DNA of 64,000 bases from Acidobacteriaceae bacterium. Its GTDB lineage: Bacteria; Acidobacteriota; Terriglobia; Terriglobales; Acidobacteriaceae. Positions within the stretch are counted from its first letter, which is position 1; each line of letters opens with the position of its first letter. Both the position numbers and the translations under genes were made by a program. This document shows positions 18,076-50,205 of the stretch, one piece after another. Where the stretch lies: NCBI GenBank assembly GCA_043782485.1, contig JAYWAL010000023.1:38336-102335 (forward strand), written 5' to 3'. The notes beneath the pieces are model-generated. The model ran no database searches and was not told where the DNA came from. It saw nothing but the letters and a program-made list of their open reading frames with translations.

Positions 18076-18603
18076 CTATTCCTTCTTCTGAATTTCCAGA
18101 ATCAGCAGCGTCAGCGCGGCCGGGAAGTCTTTCTTTCGCTTCCCTTCCGGCTTTTTGTAAAGCTGCCCGCGAAGCGTGACCTTCGTCGGAGCGCCCGCCA
18201 GGGATTCCAACCCTTTCGAGAGCTCGGTGGGAGAGAACGTGAAAGACCGGTTCGGTTCCACCTGTAGGGCTAGGTTTCCCGATGCGTCTTTGACGATCTT
18301 GCCGCGCGCGAGGATGTCCATCTCGGCGGCGGTCACGCCACTGTCGTAGGTCGCCTTCAAAAGCGCGACGGGATCAATTTGCCCGTCTTCTTTGGGAGTG
18401 ACCTGCACTTTCCCGTCGATCAAACTGACTTCTACATTTTGAACGCCAGACTGGCGTCCTAGGTGCTGTTTCACACCGAAGGCTCAAAAGTTTCAAGTCA
18501 TGCCTTCGACGCGCATTTCAATATGCTTGACTTGCGCTTCAGCCACGGGCACAACCAGAATTGCGCCGAGCAGAAGCAGGAAAGCTGCGGATTTGCGTTG
18601 CAT
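18076..18603 (-). CDS. secreted heavy-metal-associated (HMA) domain protein with two in-frame TGA codons at the CxxC positions (candidate UxxU selenoprotein)
   Basis: ATG 18603 with AAGGAG upstream. The translation is MQRKSAAFLLLLGAILVVPVAEAQVKHIEMRVEGMT-TGA-NF-TGA-AFGVKQHLGRQSGVQNVEVSLIDGKVQV... The TGA codons are at 18493-18495 and 18484-18486. The same frame continues into track ORF 18076..18474. Confidence 0.6.
18441..18459 (-). promoter_or_regulatory. candidate SECIS-like stem-loop
   Basis: The mRNA forms GGACGCCA-GUC-UGGCGUUC (8 bp including one G.U). It starts 24 nt after the second TGA. Confidence 0.35.
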
Positions 18604-48307: not shown

Positions 48308-48497
48308 CAATCCAGGTAGTGCACCGAACCCGGTTCGGTGGAGCCGCGGGCGTCCTCGCCCGTGCGGTTTACCGGCTTCTCTCCACGACCAGCGATAGGC
48401 GGCCCATTCTTTACCGACCCCGCTGCTGCGAGATTTCCGGGAGGGTTAGGGACCTTACTACGTTTTCTCAGTGAACGCGGCGTTTGAACAGTGCGCA

Positions 48498-48524
48498 CGG
48501 GCGGGGACGCCCGTGCCTCCATCG
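48498..48524. repeat. 27-bp dispersed motif (copy 3 of 3)
   Basis: cgggcggggacgcccgtgcctccatcg. It lies between the convergent M13 peptidase and Prx-like genes. Confidence 0.7.
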
Positions 48525-48539
48525 TTATGTTCAGCAGGG

Positions 48540-49073
48540 TTAAGGCAATGCCGCCAGCAGGTCAGCCATCGGAGCATTGTCCGCGAAAGTTTCGTTGGCA
48601 TGCGCGAATATGTCTACGTTACCGGGCGCAAAAATAAAGCTGCCTCCCAGCTGAAACGGGTTCTTGCCCAGCTTGTGCTGCCGGACACCAGCGGCCTTCA
48701 CCCGCGCGCGAGCTTGCCAGTTCTCAGAACGGAATATGTGCAAGACGGAGCCAACTCCAAGATCCAGAGCGTTGTAGGTAACCCGATCCAGATCCACAAG
48801 CAGCGGGAATGTGATGCCGACATCTGCGCGGAAAATGCGGGCATAGTCCATATCACCCAAGCTCACCGCGGCCAGGCGCGCGCCTTTCAGTTGGAACCCT
48901 TTTTCGCGTTCGCGCAACTGCGCGACATGCTCGCGGCAGAACACTCACCCATAGTGCCGCAAAAATGCCAGAACGCATGGCGCAGTGGCCCAAAGCGAAC
49001 CCAGACGGACCTGCTTTCCGTCGGAATCTGGCAAGACGATTTCAGAAAGCTTCGCGCTGAGGGTTGTTTCCAT
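48540..49073 (-). CDS. Prx-like (AhpC/TSA_2-type) thiol:disulfide oxidoreductase with in-frame TGA at the first redox Cys position (candidate UxxC selenoprotein)
   Basis: Track ORFs 48945..49229 and 48540..48944 are in the same frame, separated only by TGA (48945-48947). Together they read METTLSAKLSEIVLPDSDGKQVRLGSLWATAPCVLAFLRHYG-TGA-VFCREHVAQLRE... The family motif is RH(F/Y)GCxxCRE. The joined length is 177 codons counting the TGA. Confidence 0.7.
48918..48939 (-). promoter_or_regulatory. candidate SECIS-like stem-loop
   Basis: The mRNA forms CUGC(C)GCGA-GCAUG-UCGCGCAG: 8 bp with one bulged C and a 5-nt loop. It starts 6 nt after the TGA. Confidence 0.4.
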
Positions 49074-49101
49074 CGCTTCGGATAAATGTTTGCGGACCGC
49101 G

Positions 49102-50205
49102 CTACTGAATACTCGCCCCACTGGGCGGGTTGTAGAAAAAGTTAAATCGCAATGCCAGGTATTCGCCCTTGAAATCCGACGGCAAAGGCGGAAAGGGATT
49201 CGAGCCGTTGATGCCTCCCCAGGCGGCACGGTCTAGGGCAACGTCGCTGGAACTGCCGGTCAGCTGCATCGCGCTCACGCGGCCATCTTTGAGAATGGCA
49301 AACTGGATCGAAACTTTCCCCTGCTTAAACAGCGGCGAACGCGCAGATTCCGGAATCAGGTTGTACCAATTCAAACGCACATCATGCAACACCCGGGAGA
49401 GGTACGGCCCGAAGTCCACGCCCATCGTGTCACTGAGGATGTCCAGATTGCTGGCGGCACCACCCTGGCGGCCCTGTGCGAAGCCGGTATCGCTTTCACC
49501 GGCGTAACCACCACGGTTTGAGGCCGCCGCCCGCGCCGCTTGCTCCACGGCCGCACTGGCCGAGACCGTTCCCCCAAACAACACCTTGGGTCCTTCCGTC
49601 GGCGGCCGAACCTGGGCCACTTCCGGCTGCGGCGTCGGAATTCGCTCTTCATGCGGGGCGCTGGGAGCCTGCGGGCCTGGGTTATTTTGCGCCACCGGAG
49701 GCTGCGCCGGTTGTGGAGCCTGCTGCTGGGCCTGACTGCCACGGCGGCTGGCTTCGATAATGCGCTTGAGTTCGTTCGGATCGAGCGGTGAGCTATGCGT
49801 AGCCACTCGGTCTTTGTCGGAAATGACGTTGGTTTCCGGGCGTTTGGTCAACCGTTGCGCGTCCGAGGGAAGCTCGATAAACGTGGTATCCCGCTGCTTC
49901 ATCCAATCGTTGTTGGAACTTAGCGTGTGCCGATGTGGCAAAAACTGAAGGAAATACGGCGAACTCCAGAACAGCAATCCCCCCACAATATGAACAATCA
50001 CCGAAATCCAGAAGGCCTCCCGCTGACGGGAGCGGGATAGATCGTCCTGCAACTGAATCAGAAGTTTGGGAGCGTCGAAAACCTGCGAATTGCGGTAGGC
50101 GGTTTCCCAGTGATTCGGGTCGTAAAGCTCTGAGCCACCTGGCTTTGGCTGCGGCGGCGCTGGCGCGGATGAAGGGTCGGGCGGCGGAATTTGGGTCGTC
50201 GACAT
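49102..50205 (-). CDS. TonB_C domain-containing membrane protein
   Basis: 367 aa. TM helix (FWISVIVHIVGGLLFW), a Pro/Gln-rich linker, and C-terminal ...GKVSIQFAILKDGRVSAMQLTGSSSDVALDRAAWGGINGSNPFPPLP. Confidence 0.75.
   Translation of the reverse strand: MSTTQIPPPDPSSAPAPPQPKPGGSELYDPNHWETAYRNSQVFDAPKLLIQLQDDLSRSRQREAFWISVIVHIVGGLLFWSSPYFLQFLPHRHTLSSNNDWMKQRDTTFIELPSDAQRLTKRPETNVISDKDRVATHSSPLDPNELKRIIEASRRGSQAQQQAPQPAQPPVAQNNPGPQAPSAPHEERIPTPQPEVAQVRPPTEGPKVLFGGTVSASAAVEQAARAAASNRGGYAGESDTGFAQGRQGGAASNLDILSDTMGVDFGPYLSRVLHDVRLNWYNLIPESARSPLFKQGKVSIQFAILKDGRVSAMQLTGSSSDVALDRAAWGGINGSNPFPPLPSDFKGEYLALRFNFFYNPPSGASIQ

Follow-up and report, generated by a model that had tools for sequence, protein, structure and literature searches.

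Organization of the locus

The window analyzed here, a stretch of 64,000 nucleotides from an Acidobacteriaceae bacterium, carries on its minus strand two listed open reading frames, 48945..49229 and 48540..48944, that lie in a common frame and are interrupted solely by the TGA at 48947..48945. The frame and its translation agree with the original prediction that the two are halves of one gene. Its joined product, put at about 177 codons from the ATG at 49073, is exactly 177 codons long and is closed by the TAA at 48542..48540, giving METTLSAKLSEIVLPDSDGKQVRLGSLWATAPCVLAFLRHYG-U-VFCREHVAQLRE...LAALP, with the redox motif in the context FLRHYG-U-VF-C-REH (Table 1). We assign the start to this ATG because the orthologues begin at the equivalent Met, and their N termini share the pattern M-x-x-(S/T)-(L/F)-S..LPD.DG with the window protein; upstream of 49073, the sequence overlaps the 3′ end of the neighboring TonB_C-domain gene (49102..50205). 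Elsewhere in the window, TGA serves as an ordinary stop codon and ends 6 of 33 long open reading frames. A scan of the locus for promoters and terminators returned nothing relevant. A GC-rich inverted repeat without a U-run, which the consensus scan missed, sits 24 nt past the stop codon, where the selenoprotein gene and the M13 peptidase gene converge, and could be a bidirectional terminator-like element. The window also holds a second selenoprotein gene, which encodes an HMA domain and contains the motif TGA-x-x-TGA (GMT-U-NF-U).

Table 1. Coordinates of the gene, its proposed RNA elements and further features in the window
Feature	Position	Strand	Description
Selenoprotein CDS	49073..48540	minus	177 codons plus TAA; ATG at 49073; predicted Sec codon 43
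UGA codon 43	48947..48945	minus	Predicted to be decoded as Sec; first residue of U-V-F-C
TGC codon 46	48936..48938	minus	Putative resolving Cys of UxxC; Cys invariant, TGC in 94/95 orthologues
Hairpin A	48939..48918	minus	CUGC(C)GCGA-GCAUG-UCGCGCAG; 8 bp, one bulged C, 5-nt loop
Hairpin B, proposed SECIS core	48925..48910	minus	UCGCGC-AGUU-GCGCGA; 6 bp
Suppressed synonymous variation	48912..48938	minus	Codons 46-54; per-codon entropy in 95 distinct Sec orthologues
GC-rich inverted repeat	48495-48516	minus	GCACGGGCG-UCCC-CGCCCGUGC
HMA-domain gene	18076-18603	minus	Two in-frame TGAs

Protein family and predicted fold

The joined product exceeds the gathering thresholds of two Pfam models, PF13911 (AhpC-TSA_2; 45.1 bits, threshold 27) and PF00578 (AhpC-TSA; 45 bits, threshold 26), both with E values of about 1e-11, and is likewise matched by PF08534 (Redoxin). 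Among the specific models, NCBIfam NF040769, “SelL-related redox protein”, fits best (E = 5e-33, covering 5-172 of its 173 positions). With 114.1 bits, the window protein falls just short of the 120-bit cut-off of this model; its orthologues reach 123, 123.9 and 134.7 bits, and more distant Sec-containing relatives reach 164-183 bits, which places the clade at the edge of the NF040769 family. An AlphaFold2 model (pLDDT 80.7, pTM 0.80) has a thioredoxin fold in which the long active-site helix begins at residue 44, so that U43 lies at the N terminus of this helix, the classical position of the nucleophile. Human prostamide/prostaglandin F synthase PRXL2B heads the Foldseek matches in the PDB (TM 0.77/0.83, E = 1e-10) and is the one PDB protein whose sequence also matches over the full length (E = 6e-7), and Cys46 aligns by fold with C47 of its C44/C47 site; the next fold matches are PrxQ/BCP, ResA and AhpE. 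A thioredoxin fold with the redox box at the N terminus of the active-site helix is what characterizes the PRXL2 (Prx-like2) fold group, and the AhpC-TSA_2/Prx-like2-type UxxC gene that had been proposed from length and sequence motif is thus borne out by the two Pfam models and the PRXL2B fold.

The PxxxT/SxxC motif of typical peroxiredoxins (Prx/BCP) is absent from the window protein, whose RHYG-U-VF-C is a redox box of the thioredoxin type and lacks a T/S-x-x-C context, and BCP/PrxQ structures appear only as secondary fold matches. Also absent from the window gene is the UxxU of SelL sensu stricto, given that it contains one TGA and has TGC at the second position. On inspection, the N terminus shows no hydrophobic stretch of the signal-peptide kind, and a cytoplasmic location is therefore probable.

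Selenocysteine machinery and conservation of the UGA

One check suggested with the original prediction was for Sec machinery in the same genome (3.86 Mb in 165 contigs, 91% complete), and tRNA-Sec, selA, selB and selD were all found there, each above its curated cut-off. The tRNA-Sec (78 bits; anticodon UCA according to ARAGORN) is located on the window's own contig, about 20 kb before the window (L001, G000:C23:18155-18247), and selA, selB and selD score 539, 360 and 363 bits, respectively. The selD gene (L016, G000:C140:6413-7372) also encodes a selenoprotein: it has one in-frame TGA, and 13 nt beyond this lies a 7-bp hairpin with a GGU loop. Among the relatives, selA was found in 8/8 genomes that carry the gene, although this co-occurrence is uninformative, since selA is present in 39 of all 41 relatives.

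Six-frame searches that read through stop codons were run on these 41 relatives and on 401 genomes of the class, and recovered the gene in 8/41 and 14/401 genomes, respectively. Every match contains exactly one TGA and spans residues 1-177, and this includes the orthologues of other species, in 7 relatives and in 13 more genomes of the class. Among GTDB species genomes, 329 loci were found, and the best 80 of the 329 all have a TGA at the same column. In the 108 related loci scanned, all from other genomes or assemblies, the TGA is kept at codon 43 without exception. A genuine stop between two separately conserved open reading frames had been named in advance as evidence against a selenoprotein; what the orthologues have instead is conserved protein sequence on both sides of the TGA.

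The GTDB loci come from metagenome-assembled genomes (MAGs) labeled Terriglobia, Acidobacteriaceae, Terriglobales, Ca. Angelobacter, Ca. Acidoferrum, Bryobacteraceae and Ca. Korobacter, so named in the collection, together with a few from bins labeled Verrucomicrobiia, Limnocylindrales, Binatus and “delta proteobacterium”. The clade comes mainly from Acidobacteriota MAGs, several of which have soil, peat or bog sample names. Five loci from the bins with other labels (L048, L069, L085, L099 and L100; Verrucomicrobiia, Limnocylindrales, Ca. Binatus and “delta proteobacterium”) encode proteins 59-63% identical to the window protein and have the same SECIS; they reflect either horizontal transfer or mis-binning. 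Clustering of 1162 neighboring ORFs from 91 loci turned up no recurring partner gene, the best candidate being an SDR protein in 18/91 loci. The TonB_C protein, a GFO/IDH/MocA oxidoreductase and the convergent M13 peptidase are kept as neighbors only within the genus, and the neighborhood analysis gave no operon-based clue to the substrate.

Cysteine forms of the protein

Cys-containing homologues that align at the TGA had also been anticipated, and they exist both close to the window gene and far from it. Seven independent close homologues carry TGC or TGT at the column of codon 43, and the wider family (1705 clusters at 50% identity) largely reads RHFG-C-xx-C-RE, as do 61 distant representatives. 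In a maximum-likelihood tree, the seven Cys forms occupy six separate, well-supported positions nested among Sec forms, and the outgroups contain Sec. On this topology, Sec is probably ancestral in the clade, with Cys having arisen repeatedly. Two full-length database homologues, P0049 and P0020, have G and R, respectively, at the Sec column (possibly GGA and CGA), and the motif of P0020 is degraded to MQHDG; these residues may be substitutions of the TGA or errors.

Alternatives to selenocysteine at codon 43

Could the TGA be a true stop, leaving a pseudogene or two genes, the second of which would start at GTG 48944 and encode a 134-aa product? In the window genome, a GTG does follow the TGA directly, and gene callers do annotate products of 134 and 125 aa: in a collection of 5.8 billion proteins, the close matches are mostly entries of these two lengths, which start at codon 44 or at the TTG of codon 53. 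In the orthologues, however, the codon after the TGA is mostly ATC or ATT, no start codon, and the 42 codons upstream are conserved in frame across about 100 species. Moreover, a split at this point would sever the thioredoxin fold ahead of its active-site helix, and the TGA falls exactly at the catalytic Cys position of the homologues. We give a true stop practically no chance, and the 134- and 125-aa entries are truncated gene calls of the selenoprotein, which is how the databases have come to carry the gene in fragments, as had been forecast. Another set of explanations would retain the full-length protein and dispense with selenium, namely readthrough by near-cognate suppression with Trp or Cys, an altered code, or a sequencing error for TGC. 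Some database entries do show W at the position of codon 43, but there a TGA=W table had been applied to a TGA. Further points against this set are that other genes in the window end in TGA and that the genome has the complete Sec machinery. A sequencing error is excluded by the identical TGA in more than 100 independent assemblies. We consider this set of explanations highly improbable. On these grounds, the pseudogene, two-gene, code-change and sequencing-error readings were rejected.

Taken together, the Sec machinery, the conservation of the UGA, the Cys/Sec pairing and the thioredoxin fold strongly support the selenoprotein reading. We are thus highly confident that 49073..48540 is one functional gene, which encodes a probably cytoplasmic 177-residue oxidoreductase of the thioredoxin-fold Prx-like2/AhpC-TSA_2/“SelL-related” type and in which the UGA at codon 43 is decoded as Sec.

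Two overlapping hairpins downstream of the UGA

We then considered the RNA downstream of the UGA. The consensus following the TGA is nearly invariant among the orthologues (TGA RTY TTY TGC CGN GAG CAY RYC GCG CAG TTG CGC GA), and synonymous variation, normal before codon 44 and again from about codon 55, is suppressed in between. Entropy vanishes at codons 51, 52 and 54 and amounts to 0.08 bit at codon 53 (GCG 95/95, CAG 95/95, TTG 93/94 and CGC 92/92 for codons 51-54), and it is reduced over codons 46-50 (CGC plus CGT 84/90, GAG 88/94, and GTC 66/76 with no GTG, in addition to the TGC of codon 46). Two hairpins, A and B, can form in this region; they are mutually exclusive because nt 48925..48918 are common to both. 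Near-invariance of the close orthologues demonstrates constraint, but by itself does not discriminate between the two overlapping structures. Codon 48 (48930-48932) shows a preference for GAG although Glu codons elsewhere in the gene are split about 50:50, and this bias is explained by neither hairpin, as the conserved G would lie in the loop of A or in the spacer before B.

We propose hairpin B, short though it is, as the SECIS. It starts 19 nt after the UGA and has its apical AGUU loop at 48919..48916, 25 nt separating the UGA from the loop, and its energy is -9.4 to -10.2 kcal/mol. It thereby satisfies every constraint of the bSECIS model, which calls for 16-37 nt between UGA and loop, a loop with G[G/U] and an energy below -7.5 kcal/mol (PMC13188914, Fig. 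2). Across 96 aligned sequences, 95% of the cells of hairpin B are paired and four of the six pairs show double changes, a level of covariation reached by 0/500 shuffles; these figures are counts rather than probabilities, the sequences being related and hence non-independent, and the covariation comes mostly from four distant sequences. In L127 and L129, C-G has become G-C, and U-A has become C-G or U-G; three pairs are compensated in L128, and the changes in L127, L128 and L129 also include C-G to U-A and G-C to C-G. L125 keeps a hairpin with an AGUUA loop in a shifted register. RNAalifold likewise recovers the helix of hairpin B. The Cys forms serve as a control: four of the seven have lost a pair of hairpin B through a change in codons 51-54 (GAG, GCT, CGG and GCA), and GTA occurs at nt 24 in a fifth, whereas any change in these codons is seen in only 5/95 Sec forms. 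The synonymous constraint is thus tied to the UGA.

The original prediction had instead pointed to hairpin A as SECIS-like. This structure is present as it was drawn, with 8 bp, one bulge and a 5-nt loop, although the spacer after the TGA is 5 nt and not 6. Folding of the region as a single sequence is no better than that of shuffles (z = -0.73), so any weight for hairpin A has to come from comparative data. It equals hairpin B in stability (-9.8, that is, about -10, vs -9.4 kcal/mol), 97% of its positions are paired across the 96 sequences, codons 46-50 are likewise reduced in synonymous variation, and two of the seven Cys forms have CGG at Arg47, a hairpin A site. One could thus imagine that the SECIS is hairpin A, or that A and B alternate as a ribosome-driven switch in which both are needed. 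Covariation, however, does not support the role first given to hairpin A, its single double change being matched by 86/500 shuffles. The hairpin A partner at the third base of Arg47 takes all four bases, the codon bias at Arg47 is matched at Arg codons without a proposed structure (e.g., codon 82, CGC 77/89), and L050 breaks two hairpin A pairs and still retains the TGA. The spacing of 16-37 nt in the model is undercut as well, the loop of hairpin A lying 14 nt from the UGA, and this loop has GC in place of G[G/U]. Were hairpin A to form in the UxxU relatives, its 5′ arm would hold the second UGA, whereas the distances of hairpin B from their first and second UGA are 25 and 16 nt. Finally, with the UGA in the A site, the footprint of the ribosome would leave the 5′ arm of hairpin A (nt 9-17) largely inside the ribosome, which also counts against it. 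We therefore regard a SECIS at hairpin A, or a switch that needs both hairpins, as quite unlikely; hairpin A is probably not the SECIS, and hairpin B remains our proposal.

Searches with Rfam over 48700..49100 at E values up to 10 gave no SECIS family and one chance snoRNA match. No SECIS sequence common to the gene, the selD of the same genome and the HMA selenoprotein gene was found, and the hairpins downstream of the HMA gene are unlike the AGUU hairpin. In L126 (G488:C24, minus strand), a UxxC relative, a candidate SECIS, GCGAGC-AGGUU-GCUCGC, starts 10 nt after the UGA and thus nearer to it; within the family, then, the hairpin has changed position.

Proposed decoding and catalysis

We infer selenium incorporation at codon 43, and SelB binding, from these sequence features. 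As the ribosome reaches the UGA, SelB-GTP-Sec-tRNA(Sec) would bind the UCGCGC-AGUU-GCGCGA hairpin within the coding sequence and would deliver Sec in place of termination. In the product, the selenolate of U43 would most likely attack an oxidized substrate, which may be a disulfide, a hydroperoxide or an endoperoxide. C46 would then resolve the intermediate as a selenenylsulfide, so that the center would cycle between the selenol/thiol and selenenylsulfide states. By analogy with the CxxC enzyme PRXL2B, a thioredoxin-type reductant would recycle U43-V-F-C46.

It is tempting to speculate further that the two hairpins act as a ribosome-actuated switch, in which A sequesters the 5′ arm of the SECIS in free mRNA and is melted by the ribosome arriving at the UGA, so that B would offer its loop to SelB just when the UGA is being decoded and not before. 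In addition, Sec would be the ancestral state of a large Acidobacteriota clade, in a family that had been regarded as aquatic, and Cys would have arisen at least six times, each time leaving a decaying relic SECIS. We consider this combined scenario rather unlikely.

Relation to known selenoproteins

Prx-like proteins whose CxxC box begins with Sec are known in bacteria, Asgard archaea and eukaryotes (PMC4989117, PMC2398784, PMC1794560), and since thioredoxin-fold UxxC selenoproteins are already established, the selenoprotein call is in itself ordinary. Among the closest known systems is SelL/NF040769, with which the window protein shares the thioredoxin-fold Prx-like2 scaffold and a redox box at the same place. 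SelL was reportedly described by Shchedrina et al. in 2007 (PNAS 104:13919; cited in PMC2397514 and PMC4989117). It is the UxxU member and has been described as restricted to aquatic organisms, including marine bacteria (PMC2397514). Bacterial SelL has its SECIS inside the coding region, as we propose for the window gene; SelL proper is UxxU and forms a diselenide, however, whereas the window protein is UxxC, and the aquatic distribution differs from that of the clade described here, with its Acidobacteriota MAGs and soil, peat or bog sample names. Distantly related genes with two in-frame TGAs, encoding FLRHLA-U-LP-U-RDH (UxxU), are present in two Acidobacteriota genomes, at about 1470-2030 of each locus on the minus strand (L127, G552:C17; L129, G751:C444). 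Their products show 30-34% identity and score 183 bits with NF040769, and both loci keep the AGUU-loop hairpin, which compensatory changes lengthen to 7 bp and which is spaced from the first and second UGA by 25 and 16 nt, respectively.

The Prx-like proteins of PF00578 (UxxC/UxxU), the Redoxin proteins of PF08534 (UxxC) and the Prx-like proteins of cd02970 (UxxS) are entries in a 2026 inventory that covers 119 selenoprotein families of prokaryotes (PMC13188914, Table 1). In these Prx-like and Redoxin selenoproteins, too, the fold is that of thioredoxin and a CxxC-type box begins with Sec, and the families were predicted, as was the window gene, by Cys/Sec pairing and bSECIS. The best specific models of the window protein, however, are PF13911 and NF040769, neither of which is among the 119 families; its motif is RHYG-U-(I/V)F-C-REH, and the cd02970 entry is UxxS rather than UxxC. 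A full-text literature search for “SelL-related” or NF040769 returned nothing relevant. PRXL2B (PDB 9us9, 9usa), whose C44-x-x-C47 corresponds to U43-x-x-C46 of the window protein, differs in being eukaryotic and all-Cys, with 21-24% identity, and its substrate, prostaglandin endoperoxide, is not expected in Acidobacteria. As regards the SECIS, hairpin B resembles the Escherichia coli fdhF-type element and the bSECIS consensus in lying within the coding sequence just after the UGA, in its 6-bp upper stem and in a small apical loop where a G precedes a U, but it has no sequence similarity to the fdhF-type SECIS, no conserved bulged U and no Rfam match; the selD SECIS of the same genome also differs from it, having a GGU loop rather than AGUU. 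The gene is thus a new and widely mis-annotated member or clade of the known Prx-like/SelL-related UxxC selenoproteins, and not a new kind of system.

Implications

Hundreds of database entries give this gene as a truncated product of 134 or 125 residues from which the active site is missing, among them GenBank records named “AhpC/TSA family protein” from Acidobacteriota MAGs, and it follows that selenoproteome counts for Acidobacteriota are too low. With its four codons invariant at synonymous sites, its compensatory changes and the decay that accompanies at least six independent Sec-to-Cys conversions, the clade offers an unusually clean natural experiment on SECIS constraint. The findings also extend the SelL-related family, its UxxU forms included, from aquatic organisms to Acidobacteriota MAGs.
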